A DNA stretch of 5,570 bases from IMG/VR virus record IMGVR_UViG_2703718840_000002, positions 1 through 5,570 of that record; one strand, 5' to 3'. Below the pieces are notes generated by a model. That model had not been told where the DNA came from. It ran no database searches and saw only the letters and a program-made list of their open reading frames with translations. This DNA is from a virus. Lineage: Duplodnaviria > Heunggongvirae > Uroviricota > Caudoviricetes. Within the stretch, counting starts at the first letter, position 1, and each line of letters opens with the position of its first letter. Positions 1-5,570 of this stretch are shown in pieces. The position numbers and the translations under genes were made by a program.

Positions 1-303
1 GTCACTGACCTTGAGCATATCAGCCAGAGTATCGGCGATATCCTGCGCACACCGGTCGGCTCACGGGTGATGCGTCGTGATTACGGCTCGTTGCTGGCGT
101 CAATGATTGACCAGCCGCAGACCCCGGCGCTTGAGTTGCAGATTAAGGTCGCCTGTTACATGGCGGTGCTGAAATGGGAACCCCGCGTCACCCTGTCATC
201 CGTCACCACGGCGCGCAGTTTTGACGGGCGAATAACGGTCACGTTAACCGGTCAGCACAACGACACCGGCCAGCCACTTTCGTTAACCATCCCTGTGAGT
301 TGA
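1..303 (+). CDS. W: Baseplate wedge protein, P2 gpW / T4 gp25-like; 5' end lies outside the window
   Basis: Frame 1 is open from base 1 to TGA at 301-303. Translation (VTDLEHISQSIGDILRTPVGSRVMRRDYGSLLASMIDQPQTPALELQIKVACYMAVLKWEPRVTLSS...) matches my recollection of P2 gpW. The next gene starts 5 nt after the stop. Confidence 0.85.
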   Translation, partial: VTDLEHISQSIGDILRTPVGSRVMRRDYGSLLASMIDQPQTPALELQIKVACYMAVLKWEPRVTLSSVTTARSFDGRITVTLTGQHNDTGQPLSLTIPVS

Positions 304-307
304 AACC

Positions 308-1216
308 ATGCCGATTATCGACCTGAACCAGCTACCCGCACCGGATGTGGTTGAGGAGCTGGACTTTGAAACCATTCTTGCCGAACGCAAGGCGACACTG
401 ATTTCCCTTTACCCGGAAGACCAGCAGGAGGCGGTCGCCCGTACCCTGACGCTGGAATCTGAGCCTCTCGTCAAACTGCTGGAGGAAAATGCTTATCGTG
501 AGCTTATCTGGCGTCAGCGTGTGAATGAGGCTGCACGGGCGGTGATGCTGGCCTGTGCCGCCGGTAATGACCTTGATGTGATTGGTGCCAATTACAACAC
601 CACACGCCTGATTATCACCCCGGCAGATGATTCGACCCTCCCGCCGACACCGGCCGTGATGGAATCTGACACCGATTATCGTCTGCGTATTCAGCAGGCG
701 TTTGAAGGTTTAAGCGTCGCCGGGTCGGTGGGGGCCTATCAGTATCATGGTCGAAGTGCCGACGGGCGTGTCGCAGATATCTCTGTCACCAGTCCTTCTC
801 CGGCCTGCGTCACCATCTCTGTGCTGTCACGTGAAAATAACGGTGTGGCATCCGAAGACCTGCTGGCGGTGGTGCGCAACGCCCTTAATGGTGAGGACGT
901 CAGACCGGTGGCCGACCGTGTGACCGTGCAGTCTGCCGTCATCGTTGAATACCAGATAAATGCCACGCTTTACCTTTACCCTGGCCCCGAAAGCGAACCC
1001 ATTCGCGCTGCCGCCGTGAAAAAACTGGAAGCGTATATCACGGCACAGCACCGGCTGGGGCGCGACATCCGACTGTCTGCCATTTATGCCGCTTTGCATG
1101 TGGAAGGCGTGCAGCGTGTCGAACTGGCTGCACCGCTGGCCGACATCGTGCTCAACAATACGCAGGCGTCTTTCTGTACCGAATACAGCGTCGTGACAGG
1201 AGGCTCGGATGAGTGA
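308..1216 (+). CDS. J: Baseplate assembly protein J (P2 gpJ family)
   Basis: 302-aa ORF, the same length I recall for P2 gpJ. It sits directly after W and before I in the conserved W-J-I-H-G order. Antisense ORFs across it are shadows. Confidence 0.88.
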   Translation: MPIIDLNQLPAPDVVEELDFETILAERKATLISLYPEDQQEAVARTLTLESEPLVKLLEENAYRELIWRQRVNEAARAVMLACAAGNDLDVIGANYNTTRLIITPADDSTLPPTPAVMESDTDYRLRIQQAFEGLSVAGSVGAYQYHGRSADGRVADISVTSPSPACVTISVLSRENNGVASEDLLAVVRNALNGEDVRPVADRVTVQSAVIVEYQINATLYLYPGPESEPIRAAAVKKLEAYITAQHRLGRDIRLSAIYAALHVEGVQRVELAAPLADIVLNNTQASFCTEYSVVTGGSDE

Positions 1217-1820
1217 TTCGCGACTGCTGCCGACCGGCTCATCACCGCTTGAAGTCGCTGCCGCAAAAGCCTGTGCGGAAATTGAAAAAACGCCGGTCAG
1301 TATTCGTGAGCTGTGGAACCCGGACACCTGCCCGGCAAATCTGCTGCCGTGGCTGGCGTGGTCATTTTCGGTTGACCGCTGGGATGATAAGTGGCCGGAA
1401 GCGACAAAACGCGCTGTTATCCGCGATGCGTATTTCATTCACTGCCATAAGGGCACTATAGGCGCAATCCGGCGTGTGGTGGAGCCGCTCGGCTATCTGA
1501 TTGAGGTGAGGGAGTGGTGGCAGCTCAACGAGGAGCCGGGGACGTTCCGCATCGTTGTTGGCGTGCTTGAGCAGGGTATTACCGAGGAAATGTATCAGGA
1601 GCTGGAGCGCCTCGTTGCTGATGCAAAACCGGCAAGCCGCCATCTGACGGGACTGGCTATCAGTTTAAGTACAACCGGCAACATTTTTGCCGGTGCGGGA
1701 TGCTATCACGGTGACGCCCTGACGGTTTATCCCTACACCCCGGAGGCCATTATTGTCGGAGGGGATTATTTCCCGGCCTCGGCCATTCATTTAATTGATA
1801 ACCTGAGAGTAAACGCATGA
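1209..1820 (+). CDS. I: Baseplate protein I (P2 gpI family)
   Basis: 203-aa ORF. GGAGG at 1198-1202 lies 6 nt upstream of ATG 1209, which overlaps the J stop (ATGAGTGA). The N-terminus MSDSRLLPTGSSPLEVAAAKA... is as I recall for P2 gpI, and the stop overlaps the H start (ATGA). Confidence 0.85.
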   Translation: MSDSRLLPTGSSPLEVAAAKACAEIEKTPVSIRELWNPDTCPANLLPWLAWSFSVDRWDDKWPEATKRAVIRDAYFIHCHKGTIGAIRRVVEPLGYLIEVREWWQLNEEPGTFRIVVGVLEQGITEEMYQELERLVADAKPASRHLTGLAISLSTTGNIFAGAGCYHGDALTVYPYTPEAIIVGGDYFPASAIHLIDNLRVNA

Positions 1821-3124
1821 CAGTGAAATACTACGCCATTCTGACTAATCAGGGCGCAGCACGGCTGGCTAACGCGACGATGCTCGGCAGTAAGCTGAAT
1901 CTGACGCAAATGGCCGTTGGTGATGCGAATGGTGTCTTGCCGACACCAGACCCGGCACAGACAAAACTGATTAATCAGAAACGCATCGCGCCGCTGAATC
2001 TTCTGAGTGTTGACCCGAACAACCAGAGCCAGATTATTGCGGAGCAAATCATCCCTGAGAACGAGGGCGGATTCTGGATCCGTGAGATTGGGCTTTATGA
2101 TGATGAAGGCGTACTCATTGCGGTGGCGAACTGCCCGGAAACGTACAAACCGCAGTTGCAGGAAGGCAGTGGTCGTACCCAGACTATCCGCATGATTCTG
2201 GTTGTCACGAATACCGAAGCTATTACGCTGAAAATCGACCCGTCGGTGGTACTGGCGACCCGTAAATACGTGGATGATAAAGTCCTGGAATTAAAGCTGT
2301 ATGTGGATGACCAGATGAGAAACCACATTGCCGCACAAGATCCTCATACCCAGTATGCGCAGAAACATAATCCGACATTTACCGGAGAACCAAAAGCGCC
2401 GACGCCTGCAGCAGGAAATAACACCACGCGGATTGCGACCACTGAGTTTGTTCAGGCCGCTATTACTGCTCTGATTAACGGTGCGCCAGCCACGCTGGAC
2501 ACACTGAAAGAAATTGCCGCAGCCATTAACAATGACCCGAAATTCAGTACCACCATTAACAATGCGCTGTCAGGTAAGCAGCCACTGGATGAGACGCTGA
2601 CTCATTTGAGTGGAAAGGATGTTGCCGGTCTTCTCGCATACCTTGGTTTGGGAGAAGGCTCTGCATTACCTGTTGGTGTCCCTGTTCCGTGGCCTTCAGC
2701 CACTCCGCCAACAGGCTGGCTGAAATGCAACGGAGCAGCTTTTTCTGCTGAAGAATACCCGGAACTGGCAAAGGCTTACCCGACAAATAAATTGCCAGAT
2801 TTACGTGGTGAGTTTATTCGTGGCTGGGATGACGGGCGTGGTATTGATGCTGGACGTGCTTTATTGAGCCTTCAGGCTGGGATGCTGGAAAAACACCGCC
2901 ATATTGTTGTTGCCAATGATGGTTACGACACAAAAGATGAATGGGAACTGGCTACGATTTTCAAAAAAACATACACACAAGGACGGGGACTTGATGCCAC
3001 AAATACAGGAGGGAGTCTGATCCCATCACCGACACTTCATTCACGAGGGAGTATCGGTAATACTGGCGGGAGTGAGACCCGTCCACGAAATATTGCATTT
3101 AACTTTATCGTAAGGGCTGCATAA
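1817..3124 (+). CDS. H: Tail fiber protein H: conserved N-terminal and shaft region plus a C-terminal tail-collar-type receptor-binding tip
   Basis: 435-aa ORF. The N-terminus (MTVKYYAILTNQGAARLANATMLGSKLNLTQMAVGDANGVLPTPDPAQTKLINQKRIAPLNLL...) is the conserved P2 H / Mu S / P1 S fiber N-terminal domain. The C-terminal part (WLKCNGAAFSAEEYPELAKAYPTNKLPDLRGEFIRGWDDGRG) resembles the phage tail collar domain as in T4 gp12. Start overlaps the I stop. It is shorter than P2 gpH (about 669 aa, from memory). Confidence 0.9.
   Translation: MTVKYYAILTNQGAARLANATMLGSKLNLTQMAVGDANGVLPTPDPAQTKLINQKRIAPLNLLSVDPNNQSQIIAEQIIPENEGGFWIREIGLYDDEGVLIAVANCPETYKPQLQEGSGRTQTIRMILVVTNTEAITLKIDPSVVLATRKYVDDKVLELKLYVDDQMRNHIAAQDPHTQYAQKHNPTFTGEPKAPTPAAGNNTTRIATTEFVQAAITALINGAPATLDTLKEIAAAINNDPKFSTTINNALSGKQPLDETLTHLSGKDVAGLLAYLGLGEGSALPVGVPVPWPSATPPTGWLKCNGAAFSAEEYPELAKAYPTNKLPDLRGEFIRGWDDGRGIDAGRALLSLQAGMLEKHRHIVVANDGYDTKDEWELATIFKKTYTQGRGLDATNTGGSLIPSPTLHSRGSIGNTGGSETRPRNIAFNFIVRAA
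2631..2656. other. Candidate crossover site for a Din-family serine invertase (hix/gix/cix/pix-like), at the constant/variable junction of H
   Basis: TTCTCGCATACC-TT-GGTTTGGGAGAA has 12-2-12 architecture. The two half-sites agree at 10 of 12 positions when one is reverse-complemented. The inner ACC/GGT and outer TTCTC/GAGAA arms resemble hixL (TTCTTGAAAACC AA GGTTTTTGATAA, recalled from memory). It encodes LAYLGLGE, about 156 codons before the H stop. Confidence 0.55.
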
Positions 3125-3732
3125 TGGATAACGCAGTATTAAATAGCGAGTTTATTGCCACGAAGGCGGGGAATATTACCGTCTATAACTACGATGGTGA
3201 AACTCGGGAATATATTTCTGCATCAACTGAATATCTTGCAGTGGGTGTCGGTATTCCAGCATATTCCTGTTTAGACGCTCCTGGTACATATAAGGCTGGT
3301 TATACAATTTGCCGTTCTGTAGATTTAAATTCATGGGAATATGTGCCAGACCATCGCGGTGAAATCGTCTATAACACCGAGACGGGAGATGCCAAAGAAA
3401 TCACAGCACCGGGTGATTACCCCGAAAATACAACCACTATCGCCCCATTAACGCCATACGATAAATGGGATGGTGAGAAATGGGTGACCGATACTGAGGC
3501 ACAGCATAGCGCCGCAGTAGACGCGGCAGAAGCACAGCGTCAGTCACTGATTGATACTGCAATGGCTTCCATTAGTCTGATTCAGCTGAAATTACAGGCC
3601 GGACGGAATCTGACGCAGTCAGAAACCAGCCGACTTAACACGGTGTTGGATTACATTGACGCGGTGACGGCAACAGATACCAGCACCGCGCCGGATGTTA
3701 TCTGGCCTGAACTGCCGGAGACTGCGCAATAA
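3124..3732 (+). CDS. G: Tail fiber assembly protein / chaperone (P2 gpG, lambda Tfa, Mu U family)
   Basis: 202-aa ORF whose ATG overlaps the H stop (TAATG). The C-terminus (...RLNTVLDYIDAVTATDTSTAPDVIWPELPETAQ) carries the conserved Tfa motif (RVDTSTAPDIEWP-like). The central DHRGEIVYNTETG...WDGEKWVTDTEAQ segment also matches the family pattern as I recall it. Confidence 0.85.
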   Translation: MDNAVLNSEFIATKAGNITVYNYDGETREYISASTEYLAVGVGIPAYSCLDAPGTYKAGYTICRSVDLNSWEYVPDHRGEIVYNTETGDAKEITAPGDYPENTTTIAPLTPYDKWDGEKWVTDTEAQHSAAVDAAEAQRQSLIDTAMASISLIQLKLQAGRNLTQSETSRLNTVLDYIDAVTATDTSTAPDVIWPELPETAQ

Positions 3733-3868
3733 ACTCACCATCAATATATAAATCCCCCTGCTGTGTGTCAGCAGGGCATTCTTTCCATATTAATGATGGA
3801 TGGAATCTTCCTTCAGGATTAATTTCCGTTATCTCTTCTACTTTATTTTCTTCAATTCTTGCCCACAT
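3698..3868 (-). CDS. Small hypothetical protein (56 aa) coupled to the glycine-rich ORF; possible remnant or short form of an alternative tail-fiber chaperone (Tfa'/U'-like position)
   Basis: On the minus strand the ATG at 3868-3866 is preceded by GGTGAGGT, 5 nt upstream, and this SD overlaps the TGA of the glycine-rich ORF. Translation is MWARIEENKVEEITEINPEGRFHPSLIWKECPADTQQGDLYIDGEFIAQSPAVQAR. Its 3' end overlaps the G 3' end by 35 nt, convergently. It is far too short for a full Tfa and contains the hairpin, so it is uncertain. Confidence 0.3.
   Translation of the reverse strand: MWARIEENKVEEITEINPEGRFHPSLIWKECPADTQQGDLYIDGEFIAQSPAVQAR
3756..3776. terminator. GC-rich hairpin (8-bp stem, 5-nt loop) between the convergent G gene and the minus-strand cassette; possible bidirectional intrinsic terminator
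   Basis: CCCTGCTG (3756-3763), loop TGTGT, CAGCAGGG (3769-3776) form a perfect inverted repeat 24 nt after the G stop. It is followed by CATTCTTTCC on the + strand and by ATTTATATATT on the minus strand. Caveat: it lies inside the candidate small minus-strand ORF. Confidence 0.35.
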
Positions 3869-3875
3869 ATGAACC

Positions 3876-4316
3876 TCACCAGTAAATATAAACTGCGCCA
3901 TCTGCTCCGGCACCCGACTGACCCGTTGATGAATTAGGACATAATCCAGCTCCGCCACCTCCAGGCCCAACTGCTGATACCGCTTTTCCGTTAGCTGTAT
4001 CTCTGAATGAACCTGCTCCTCCGGGGCCACCACCAGAACCACCATTACCAGCTCCCGATGCGGCAGAAGCAATGGAACCTGGAGAACCTGGCCCAAGCGA
4101 TGTATTAATTGTTCCCCCGACACCAACTGCTCCTAACCCTCCGGAAGGCTGGCCTCCGCTATAGCCTCCGGAAGCTGACATGTAAGTCCCGAAACTGCTC
4201 GAGCCACCATTTTTACCGTTTACAGAAATACCAGACACAGGCGCACCACCGGTACTGGAAAAACTCGGTGTTATCAACAAAGAGTCAGACACACTTGACC
4301 AGACCGCCGCCAGAAC
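3876..4316 (-). CDS. Start-less glycine-rich tail-fiber tip domain on the opposite strand (putative alternative variable C-terminal region of H, H'v); likely a gene fragment
   Basis: Minus-strand frame is open from 4316 to TGA at 3878-3876, with no ATG near its 5' end (only GTG at 4292). Translation is rich in poly-Gly/Ser motifs (...GGYSGGQPSGGLGAVGVGG...GAGNGGSGGGPGGAGS...VGPGGGGAG...GADGAVYIYW), as in fiber or adhesin receptor-binding tips. Position and orientation match the S'v half of a Mu G-type invertible segment. The 5' boundary is uncertain because it overlaps the open + frame of the T remnant at 4186-4316. Confidence 0.5.
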   Translation of the reverse strand, partial: VLAAVWSSVSDSLLITPSFSSTGGAPVSGISVNGKNGGSSSFGTYMSASGGYSGGQPSGGLGAVGVGGTINTSLGPGSPGSIASAASGAGNGGSGGGPGGAGSFRDTANGKAVSAVGPGGGGAGLCPNSSTGQSGAGADGAVYIYW

Positions 4317-4569
4317 TCAAGCCGCCACGTATGGCCGCGGTGGTTATATTCCGGCGACCAGCTCTTATGCAGGCTATCAGGCTTATCAGCCGGTCACGGT
4401 ACCGGCTGGTCGCTCTTATGTGGACCAGAGTAAAAACGAATATCACATCAGTCTGACGGGCGGTACTGCGCCGGGGACACAGCTTGACCGCCAGTTACAG
4501 GATGCACTCGAAAAATACGAGCGGGATAAACGTGCGCGCGCCCGTGCCAGCATGATGCATGACGGTTAA
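4186..4569 (+). pseudogene. T: Tail tape measure protein T, C-terminal fragment only (N-terminal bulk of the gene absent)
   Basis: Frame 1 is open from 4186 (after TAA at 4183-4185) to TAA at 4567-4569, with no start codon. It ends ...LDRQLQDALEKYERDKRARARASMMHDG immediately before the U SD and start, where P2 synteny (T-U-D) places the end of T. The true 5' junction lies somewhere between about 4186 and 4320. Confidence 0.6.
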
Positions 4570-4583
4570 GGAGGTGACGAAAA

Positions 4584-5063
4584 ATGATGCTCGCGTTAGG
4601 TATGTTTGTTTTTATGCGCCAGACGCTGCCACACCAGACCATGCAGCGTGAATCAGATTATCGCTGGCCGTCAAATTCCCGTATCGGTAAACGGGATGCC
4701 TTTCAGTTTCTCGGTGTGGGTGAGGAAAACATCACGCTTGCCGGCGTGCTTTATCCCGAACTGACCGGCGGGAAGCTGACGATGACCACGCTCAGACTGA
4801 TGGCAGAGGAAGGCCGGGCGTGGCCGTTGCTGGATGGCACCGGCATGATTTACGGCATGTATGTCATCAGCAGGGTGAGTGAAACAGGGAGTATTTTCTT
4901 TGCAGACGGCACACCCCGGAAAATTGATTTTACGCTGTCGCTCACCCGCGTTGATGAATCACTGGCCGCGCTTTATGGCGATATCGGTAAACAGGCGGAA
5001 TCGCTCATCGGTAAGGCTGGCAGTATGGCGACCAGATTCACGGGTATGACGGGGGTGGGATAA
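4584..5063 (+). CDS. U: Tail protein U (P2 gpU family)
   Basis: 159-aa ORF (MMLALGMFVFMRQTLPHQTMQRESDYRWPSNSRIGKRDAFQFLGVGEENITLAGVLYPELTGG...), the same length I recall for P2 gpU. GGAGG at 4570-4574 lies 9 nt upstream of the ATG. Its stop overlaps the D start (TAATG). Confidence 0.82.
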   Translation: MMLALGMFVFMRQTLPHQTMQRESDYRWPSNSRIGKRDAFQFLGVGEENITLAGVLYPELTGGKLTMTTLRLMAEEGRAWPLLDGTGMIYGMYVISRVSETGSIFFADGTPRKIDFTLSLTRVDESLAALYGDIGKQAESLIGKAGSMATRFTGMTGVG

Positions 5064-5570
5064 TGCTGGATGCGCTGACATTTGATGCAGGCAGTACGCT
5101 GACGCCGGATTACATGCTGATGCTCGACAGCAGGGATATTACCGGCAATATCAGCGACCGTCTGATGAGTATGACCCTGACGGATAACCGGGGCTTTGAG
5201 GCTGACCAGCTTGATATTGAACTGAACGATGCCGACGGGCAGGTCGGGCTGCCGGTTCGTGGCGCTGTCCTGACGGTGTATATCGGCTGGAAAGGTTTTG
5301 CTCTGGTATGCAAAGGGAAATTTACCGTTGATGAGGTTGAACACCGGGGCGCGCCGGATGTGGTCACCATCCGCGCCCGGAGTGCAGATTTCCGCGGGAC
5401 GCTCAATTCCCGCCGTGAAGGTTCATGGCATGACACCACGCTCGGTGCGATTGTTGAGGCGATAGCCTCCCGTAACAGGCTGGAAGCCAGAGTCGCTCCG
5501 TCACTGGCCGGAATTAAAATCCCACACATCGACCAGTCGCAGGAGTCCGACGCGAAATTCCTGACCCGTC
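5063..5570 (+). CDS. D: Tail protein D (P2 gpD family); 3' end lies outside the window
   Basis: ATG at 5063 overlaps the U stop. Frame 2 stays open to the window end (169 codons, no stop). Translation MLDALTFDAGSTLTPDYMLMLDSRDITGNISDRLMSMTLTDNRGFEADQLDIELNDADGQVGLPVRG... matches my recollection of P2 gpD. The two antisense ORFs (4973..5344, 5110..5529) are shadows. Confidence 0.85.
   Translation, partial: MLDALTFDAGSTLTPDYMLMLDSRDITGNISDRLMSMTLTDNRGFEADQLDIELNDADGQVGLPVRGAVLTVYIGWKGFALVCKGKFTVDEVEHRGAPDVVTIRARSADFRGTLNSRREGSWHDTTLGAIVEAIASRNRLEARVAPSLAGIKIPHIDQSQESDAKFLTR

Follow-up and report, generated by a model that had tools for sequence, protein, structure and literature searches.

The minus-strand reading frames that lie downstream of the tail fibre gene in a defective P2-like prophage very probably represent one half, now decayed, of an invertible tail-fibre segment of the Pin/Gin type. 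The window that we analysed, a stretch of 5,570 nucleotides, is the tail-gene block of this prophage, as judged from its Pfam and PHROG matches and its gene order. A sequence-only reading had taken 3698-4316 for an inverted, start-less fibre-tip cassette convergent with gene G and comparable to one half of the Mu G segment. The features placed in the window are as follows.

67-303: gene W
308-1216: gene J
1209-1820: gene I
1817-3124, plus strand: tail fibre gene H, 435 aa (Pfam Phage_tail_fib, 1e-62; Collar, 4.5e-15); constant part to about 2644, variable collar-type tip at 2645-3124, currently fused to it (the ON orientation)
2631-2656, plus strand: the sole surviving 26-bp Gin/Cin/Pin-type crossover site, TTCTCGCATACC-TT-GGTTTGGGAGAA, inside H, located by pattern search
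3124-3732, plus strand: gene G, tail fibre assembly protein (Tfa) for the collar-type tip, 202 aa (Pfam Caudo_TAP, 3.7e-32; PHROG 105)
3698-3868, minus strand: 56-aa ORF (MWARIEENKV...), ATG at 3868, stop at 3698, with the Shine-Dalgarno (SD) sequence GGTGAGG
3876-4255, minus strand: start-less variable fibre tip, truncated at its 5' end, comprising the C-terminal 125 codons plus stop of a Gly_rich_2 tip of about 210 codons
4251-4255: deletion junction, a 5-bp microhomology (GGTAC) common to the cassette on the left and the tape-measure gene on the right
4251-4569, plus strand: tape-measure gene T, C-terminal ~105 codons (~319 nt), 98-99% identical to the T-U-D region of P2-like prophages
4584-5063, plus strand: tail gene U (Pfam Phage_P2_GpU, 3.7e-44), with ordinary P2 tail DNA right of the junction
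After U: the start of gene D

Gene order and the deletion junction

In complete P2-type prophages (L002, L006 and P2-like loci), G and U are separated by genes FI, FII, E, E' and T. The distance from G to U in the window is 850 bases, and both minus-strand ORFs fall within it. The longer of the two, an open frame running from 4316 to 3876, consists of 146 sense codons and a stop and is very glycine-rich. As originally described, the frame has no ATG at its 5' end; an internal Met codon and a GTG at 4292 are present. Frame length alone is no proof of coding, because antisense ORFs of 203 aa (827-1438) and 139 aa (5110-5529) also occur in the window, and the evidence must come from homology.

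When complete E. coli genomes were searched with Megablast, positions 3600-4255 of the window were matched at up to 99.8% identity and the match then ended, and a query starting at 4200 matched the T-U-D region of P2-like prophages from 4251 onward, at 98-99%. The BLAST end points are thus 4255 on the cassette side and 4251 on the tape-measure side, and in a three-way alignment the window tracks the cassette through ...CACCACCGGTAC and then the T gene from GGTACTGGAAAAAC... The proposal that the frame was truncated at its 5' side by a deletion was correct as to the truncation, but the junction lies at 4251-4255 and not at the top of the open frame. Likewise, the fibre cassette assigned to 3698-4316 holds up to 4255, but the remaining 61 nt (4256-4316), which supply the top 20 codons of the open frame, are antisense T, and only 4255..3876 of the frame is fibre-derived.

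These end points bear directly on the possibility that the frame arose by chance, antisense to tape-measure or other coding DNA of the plus strand. Long ORFs on antisense strands are frequent in the window, and the top 61 nt of the frame are truly antisense T, as this explanation would have it. However, tape-measure homology does not continue through 4186-4316 to lower coordinates, as it should if the frame were antisense throughout, but ends at 4251, and no plus-strand gene covers 3733-4250. The remainder of the frame matches the tips of complete fibres at 379 of 380 nt and belongs to PF21722 and to the fold of the Pam3 fibre. We regard the chance-ORF explanation as refuted, with practically no probability left to it.

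Compared with the complete prophage L006, about 5.3 kb of DNA has been lost. The deletion removed ~85 N-terminal codons of the tip (about 253 nt), the distal crossover site and the invertase gene, together with FI, FII, E, E' and all of T but its last ~105 codons. The prophage has neither sheath nor tube and has lost most of its tape measure; it is no longer able to build tails, and even the fibre in the ON orientation is useless. Searches of 5,426 complete E. coli genomes and 185,579 species-representative genomes gave no second instance of this junction, and the deletion appears to be private to the source strain. Since this exact deletion turned up in no other genome searched, the ancestral state is reconstructed rather than observed in a sister strain.

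Intact cassettes and the crossover site

Positions 2640-4255 of the window are 99.75% identical to positions 6041-7656 of L001, an e14-type prophage with pinE next to the cassette, which upholds the comparison with half of a Mu G-like segment convergent with G. Two P2-type prophages provide further intact examples. In L002, a recombinase gene lies between the fibre segment and FI; this locus also shows a mini-inversion of ~90 bp that might stem from invertase action at a quasi-site. L006 is the complete P2-type prophage of E. coli PEC395, and its gene order is W, J, I, H (486 aa) and a small ORF, facing tfa' and a collar tip' on the opposite strand, followed by the recombinase, FI, FII, E, E', T, U, D and ogr. 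All three prophages share the layout that had been anticipated for intact relatives (Hc, then Hv-G facing G'-H'v, then invertase): the constant part Hc is followed by tip A and chaperone A, by the oppositely oriented chaperone B' and tip B', and by the invertase. The recombinases of L006 and L001 are Resolvase plus HTH_7 proteins, 88% identical to each other, and that of L001 is annotated as pinE. One cassette, over 99% identical, is present on both P2-type and e14-type constant parts, and it is common to unrelated tail types.

The window aligns with L006 in four blocks.

Window 1-2658: L006 6501-9158, same orientation, 97.7% identity
Window 2643-2848: L006 11040-10835, inverted
Window 3079-4255: L006 10574-9398, inverted
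Window 4251-5570: L006 16088-17407, same orientation

The window therefore corresponds to L006 with the segment flipped and ~5.3 kb gone. Both orientations of the segment are seen across genomes, the window and L001 having it one way and L002 and L006 the other. When H of the window up to 2644 was joined in silico to the intact tip of L001, the result was an open fibre of 486 aa (...GKDVAGLLAYLGLREGSFGFRNLVAFTTAGVTSWTVPEELRKGRKCYVKVIGGG...YIYW), and a 295-nt chimeric query spanning the fusion junction had a one-piece match at 99% in PEC395, where H is annotated with 486 aa (WP_483542339). The predicted fusion of H, at the crossover site, to the minus-strand tip is thus found in a complete prophage.

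The crossover site in the window has one mismatch from the Gin/Cin/Pin consensus used, and was the single match found where 0-0.04 were expected by chance. The published repeat of the e14 P segment, TTGGTTTGGGAGAAGG (taken from PMC12529663), occurs verbatim at 2643-2658. The central TT of the site is at 2643-2644, and homology to the cassettes switches at the crossover site. The site codes for LLAYLGLGE within H, so that exchange of tips stays in frame, as in the open 486-aa fusion. Inside the segment, the window retains two convergent modules of a start-less tip and an accessory gene, the collar tip with G on the plus strand and the Gly-rich tip remnant with the 56-aa ORF on the minus strand. 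L001 has two crossover sites, at 6032-6057 and 7898-7923. In the window, no second site was detected on either strand with up to three mismatches, nor any suitable inverted repeat, and no serine invertase ORF (Resolvase plus HTH_7) was present, this gene falling in the deleted interval. Having a single site and lacking an invertase gene, the segment is unable to invert, and the designation of the locus as invertible comes wholly from its relatives.

Inversion might be imagined to persist by means of a distal site outside the window or a Pin recombinase supplied by another prophage, given that the H-side crossover site is intact and that the e14 P segment is a substrate for Pin recombinases working in trans (PMC12529663). 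Two inverted flanking sites are required, however, and none exists in 2657-5570 when three mismatches are allowed; the DNA right of the junction is contiguous T-U-D. A trans-acting Pin that has no second substrate site yields no inversion, and even after inversion the 5'-truncated tip could not join in frame as a complete domain. Continued inversion of this copy is scarcely credible. In EPEC, experiments have demonstrated that fibre segments of P2-like prophages invert (PMC4272514).

The glycine-rich tip remnant and its small partner

The suggestion that the minus-strand frame encodes a fibre or adhesin tip was borne out by its intact relatives. The L001-type tip matched Pfam PF21722 (Gly_rich_2) over profile positions 1-225 of 226, with 43.4 bits and an E value of 5e-11. 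The remnant in the window, 379/380 nt identical to L001, matched profile positions 67-225 only and, at 11.8 bits, stayed below the gathering cut-off of 24.3 bits; it has lost the first ~70 of ~195 residues of the domain (about 36%), several core strands included. By descent, this remnant is best classed as a truncated member of Gly_rich_2. Near-identical tips are found on complete fibres (P0017, P0018, P0020, P0022 and P0030), and the constant parts carrying them include the e14 type (P0022, 98 member sequences), the Mu/P1-S type (P0020) and others. Exhaustive HMMER and profile searches were needed to collect these homologues, a word-indexed search having returned 9 matches. Similar start-less cassettes bear the PGAP label 'glycine-rich domain-containing protein'.

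An AlphaFold2 model of a near-identical cassette tip (P0023), built from a 42-sequence alignment, had a pLDDT of 88.6 and a pTM of 0.83. Its best match in the PDB was the fibre of cyanophage Pam3 (7ypx_A, E 8e-7, TM 0.62), followed by tail-tip chains of mycobacteriophage Bxb1 and, more weakly, the glycine-rich domain of ALK/LTK. A direct sequence search of the PDB with the intact tip gave nothing useful, and Pam3 gp24 was reached only by the family profile, whose two significant matches in the PDB were both Pam3 fibre chains (E ~3e-4), and by fold comparison. In Pam3, the unit made of a TNF-like and a glycine-rich part has been proposed as the end that binds the receptor (PMC9608196). Profile and model evidence together support a fibre domain of receptor-binding type for the glycine-rich frame (4255..3876). 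Membership in the gp38-type adhesins was considered and dropped, as neither S16 nor T-even gp38 was matched by sequence or by fold.

With no start codon at its 5' end and no promoter-like site upstream on the minus strand, this half of the segment is silent, as had been proposed, and the tip remnant is a pseudogene fragment. The truncated frame could instead be expressed alone, from the GTG at 4292 or an internal ATG, and serve the host by masking receptors or blocking adsorption in the manner of StfE2 of e14. The frame is still open, cryptic prophages are able to block phage adsorption through expressed fibre fragments (PMC12529663), and PGAP annotates similar cassettes as proteins. However, the missing promoter and the missing ~70 residues with their core strands argue against this, and the GTG at 4292 sits in antisense tape-measure DNA brought in by the deletion. 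Moreover, the remnant differs from L001 at only 1 of 380 nt, so that its openness reflects a recent event and not selection. We consider stand-alone expression very improbable. The loss of about 36% of the domain, of the second site and of the invertase also means that the cryptic second specificity ascribed to this half is not recoverable.

The small ORF begins immediately after the tip. As first noted, its SD sequence, GGTGAGG, overlaps the TGA of the Gly-rich frame, and its ATG at 3868 is five bases further; the 56 codons extend to 3698, and the last 35 nt overlap the 3' end of the convergent gene G in antisense. Neither the 56-aa version nor a 67-aa version had Pfam, PHROG or NCBIfam-type matches, the Caudo_TAP domain (PF02413) included, and a direct sequence search of the PDB gave nothing useful, Pam3 gp25 being reached only by profiles and fold comparison. 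A word-indexed search returned 6 homologues. An exhaustive HMMER and profile search was needed, and it gave 272 representative clusters containing a module of ~50 residues, nearly always N-terminal, in proteins of 49-215 aa. The longer carriers also contain DUF4376 or Phage_tail_APC domains, and their PHROGs bear the labels tail fibre or fibre assembly; several of these proteins end in a GFP..V.WP..P motif similar to the end of G. Some very long proteins contain the same module 4-7 times over.

Stand-alone forms of 49-70 aa recur in many 50%-identity clusters, including a sequenced Yersinia phage isolate and a Pseudomonas phage. In divergent phages the conserved start is MWARIE, corresponding to the ATG at 3868, and the SD is conserved as well; the 67-aa PGAP call from an ATG at 3901 in relatives is probably too long. 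The conserved start also led us to reject a 142-aa ORF beginning with TTG (3698-4126) in the same frame, which has no Pfam match and lies where the frame of the small ORF is open through G+C-rich tip DNA. In a survey of neighbours on contigs with enough context (L009 came without upstream gene information), the gene directly followed a Gly_rich_2 fibre gene in L007, L012, L013/L014 and L015 and lay one gene away in L008. The homologue in Pseudomonas phage Amjad_SA follows a deacetylase-domain protein, not a Gly_rich_2 fibre.

The AlphaFold2 model of the 56-aa ORF (pLDDT 87.4) has five strands and no helix. In Pam3 gp25, residues 1-55 form a beta-sandwich that grips the fibre at its TNF-like as well as its glycine-rich domains, and residues 64-162 form a helical bundle that trimerises the chaperone (PMC9608196). 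The 56-aa ORF has the N-terminal beta-sandwich of ~55 residues of the gp25 type. The C-terminal alpha-helical trimerisation domain of gp25 and TfaMu is absent from it, the protein ending at residue 56. The ORF is a stand-alone homologue of the gp25 N-terminal gripping domain and the partner of the Gly-rich tip, and the two together are a fibre/chaperone pair homologous to Pam3 gp24/gp25. Its proposed identity as a U'/Tfa-type partner thus stands as to a chaperone-type homologue, but by sequence it is not a member of the Caudo_TAP/Mu U family. It has neither a Pfam or PHROG match nor a trimerisation domain, and its chaperone role, in which it would assist folding of the Gly-rich tip, is putative.

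It could be argued that the ORF is only the meaningless stump of a once full-length Tfa-like chaperone. The helical domain of gp25 is missing, many family members are longer and have DUF4376 or Phage_tail_APC domains, and the last ~9 codons read through into the antisense strand of G, with residues 53-56 below a pLDDT of 50 and predicted to be disordered. Against this are the recurrence of the stand-alone forms in many clusters, phages among them, the conservation of SD and start codon, and a dN/dS of 0.09-0.21 for stand-alone forms, measured against Yersinia-phage and metagenomic homologues; compared with the Pseudomonas homologue, synonymous sites are saturated and the protein is still conserved. 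These substitution patterns indicate that the stand-alone forms are under purifying selection, and we think the stump explanation unlikely.

In current models based on TfaMu and Pam3 gp25, the helical trimerisation domain is the conserved, essential half of the chaperone. We raise, as a tentative and still doubtful possibility, that the 56-aa MWARIE protein is a functional 'headless' fibre chaperone, a beta-sandwich acting without that domain. The neighbouring Tfa (G), or else the constant part of the fibre itself, might then lend it that function. If this were true, Gly_rich_2 tips of enterobacterial invertible cassettes would use an undescribed minimal chaperone class, and the four- to sevenfold repeats of the module in very long proteins would also need explaining. 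In this window, such a chaperone would be inactive, its client tip being truncated.

Known systems and the history of the locus

The window shares its type of crossover site with the e14 P segment and pinE, and with Mu G/gin, P1 C/cin and p15B Min. It also shares the e14-type architecture, in which the constant fibre part lies outside the segment, two convergent modules of tip and accessory gene lie inside, and a serine invertase adjoins. In contrast to these systems, it has lost its invertase and distal site and carries one truncated tip, and one module consists of a Gly_rich_2 tip and a 56-aa protein instead of a second collar tip with a Caudo_TAP Tfa. Its constant part is that of P2 H, and not StfP or Mu S.

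A further comparison is with the invertible fibre loci of P2-like prophages, seen in EPEC E2348/69 (Goldberg et al., 2014; PMC4272514), L002 and L006, which belong to the same phage family and are likewise placed between G and FI. Apart from the deletion and the way the segment faces, L006 and the window are collinear, at 94-98% identity. All of these P2-like loci are complete, and the EPEC segment has been shown to invert, whereas the window is a locked, deleted derivative in a tail-less prophage. A second frozen half-cassette is found in an isolated, sequenced phage, Yersinia phage vB_YpM_MLG42 (Peduoviridae), where the same convergent layout follows G, with a start-less Gly-rich frame of 209 codons and a 55-aa MWARIE ORF, and where no invertase gene is annotated. 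In contrast to the window, its Gly-rich frame is full length and FI through T are kept.

The likeness to Pam3 gp24/gp25 (PDB 7YPX; PMC9608196) is one of low sequence identity, 24-26%; gp25 has 162 aa with the C-terminal helical trimerisation domain that the 56-aa ORF is without, and the Pam3 fibre is fixed, with no inversion. The glycine-rich, distal receptor-binding architecture of the tip is also that of gp38 in T-even phages and S16, and the Pam3 study relates gp24 to S16 gp38 (PMC9608196). However, gp38 caps gp37 as a protein of its own; the Gly-rich domain here is instead joined to the fibre by inversion.

These comparisons suggest the following history. In the intact state, as seen in relatives, a serine invertase gene would have lain between the fibre segment and FI, and the enzyme would have recombined, at the central TT, a pair of inverted 26-bp sites, of which one was in H and the other beside the invertase gene. 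Each event would flip a segment of ~1.9 kb with two convergent modules, the first a collar-type tip with its Tfa (G) and the second a Gly_rich_2 tip with the 56-aa chaperone-like protein. Whichever tip faced the constant part of H would be translated as the receptor-binding end of the fibre, and the other would have neither start codon nor promoter. By analogy with the EPEC P2-like prophages, the ancestral locus would have been an active switch of the kind shown there. As to the order of events, we infer that the collar tip was ON when an illegitimate deletion of ~5.3 kb took place between two GGTAC pentamers; the Gly-rich fragment (4255..3876) and its partner gene (3868..3698) are now locked, unexpressed and incomplete.

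Systems of this type are well known, and the copy in the window is a dead one, the product of ordinary prophage decay; what would be new, and only mildly so, is the pairing of a putative stand-alone chaperone domain with Gly_rich_2 tips. In annotations, 3876-4255 is to be recorded as a fibre-tip pseudogene fragment, 4256-4316 should be excluded, and the small ORF should start at the ATG at 3868 (56 aa), not at the start of the 67-aa PGAP call. Because ~1.6 kb of the window is nearly identical to live cassettes, the remnant could still donate sequence to incoming phages by homologous recombination. The locus provides an example of how an invertible host-range switch dies, through one microhomology-mediated deletion.

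Boundaries of the small ORF and the hairpin beside G

In relatives of the window, the small ORF that partners the Gly-rich fibre tip is called by RefSeq/PGAP as a 67-aa protein starting at an ATG within the tip gene (7099-7302 in L001, an e14-type prophage with pinE; 9752-9955 in L006, the P2-type prophage of E. coli PEC395), and in the window the coordinates at issue for this start are 3868-3901. Since all divergent homologues, from Yersinia phages, Pseudomonas phages and metagenomes, begin with MWARIE, comparison of these proteins makes the 56-aa call the more likely one. Separately, the ~50-residue MWARIE module, a putative chaperone-type fibre-binding domain, was also observed as 4-7 tandem stretches within a few very long proteins:

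P0132, 1681 aa
P0159, 877 aa
P0183, 625 aa
P0205, 954 aa

The small ORF also contains a hairpin, which begins 24 nt past the G stop and encodes CPADTQQG in this frame:

Window 3756-3776, perfect hairpin with an 8-bp stem, CCCTGCTG-TGTGT-CAGCAGGG

This hairpin could be a bidirectional terminator separating the two convergent modules; its T tail is weak.

Variation within the two fibre tips

The middle of the collar-type (ON) tip, window 2849-3078, could not be aligned with L006 10575-10834 although the flanks align; the window matches L001 throughout (99.75% identity). On these alignments, the ON tip is thus itself mosaic across P2-like prophages.

A ~90-bp mini-segment immediately inside the H-side crossover site was inverted in the P2-type prophage L002 (7830-7900) and in the e14-type fibre P0057, taking as reference the orientation in L001 (compare 7820-7910), L006 and the complete fibre P0022. 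The exchange points are one good site and one poor quasi-site (CGTAACATTTTC-TT-CCTTTGCGCAAC), and inversion changes the junction peptide from GLREGSFGFRNLVAFTTAGVTSWTVPEELRKG to PLRNSSGTVQLVTPAVVK.TRFLNPNEPSLKP, with the reading frame open in both orientations. Because the Gly_rich_2 domain lacks its initial strands in the inverted form, the resulting fibre may be non-functional. The arrangement recalls the multi-segment shufflon described in a P2-like prophage of EPEC (PMC4272514).

Half-cassettes and cargo in other genomes

In L007 (4172-4553), a metagenomic e14/Mu-type element, a Gly_rich_2 fibre and a 56-aa ORF stand in a fixed arrangement from which G', the second tip and the invertase are all absent. 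About 20 nt of the antisense G end persist past the small-ORF stop, suggesting derivation from an invertible cassette; the DNA beyond this remnant resembles, and may be, a tRNA 3' end.

Between G and FI, another P2-like prophage (L003, 3161-4387) carries a Shedu immune nuclease gene, and the same inter-operon position is occupied by the invertible cassette and invertase in L002 and L006, which suggests a hot spot for cargo at this point.

A half-cassette was also found in the isolated and sequenced P2-like Yersinia phage vB_YpM_MLG42 (L005):

L005 3364-4168, convergent with G, Gly-rich tip frame of 209 codons, full length but start-less, and 55-aa MWARIE ORF

No invertase gene is annotated in this phage, and the sole crossover site left is degenerate. 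Thus, otherwise complete phage genomes also retain frozen half-cassettes.
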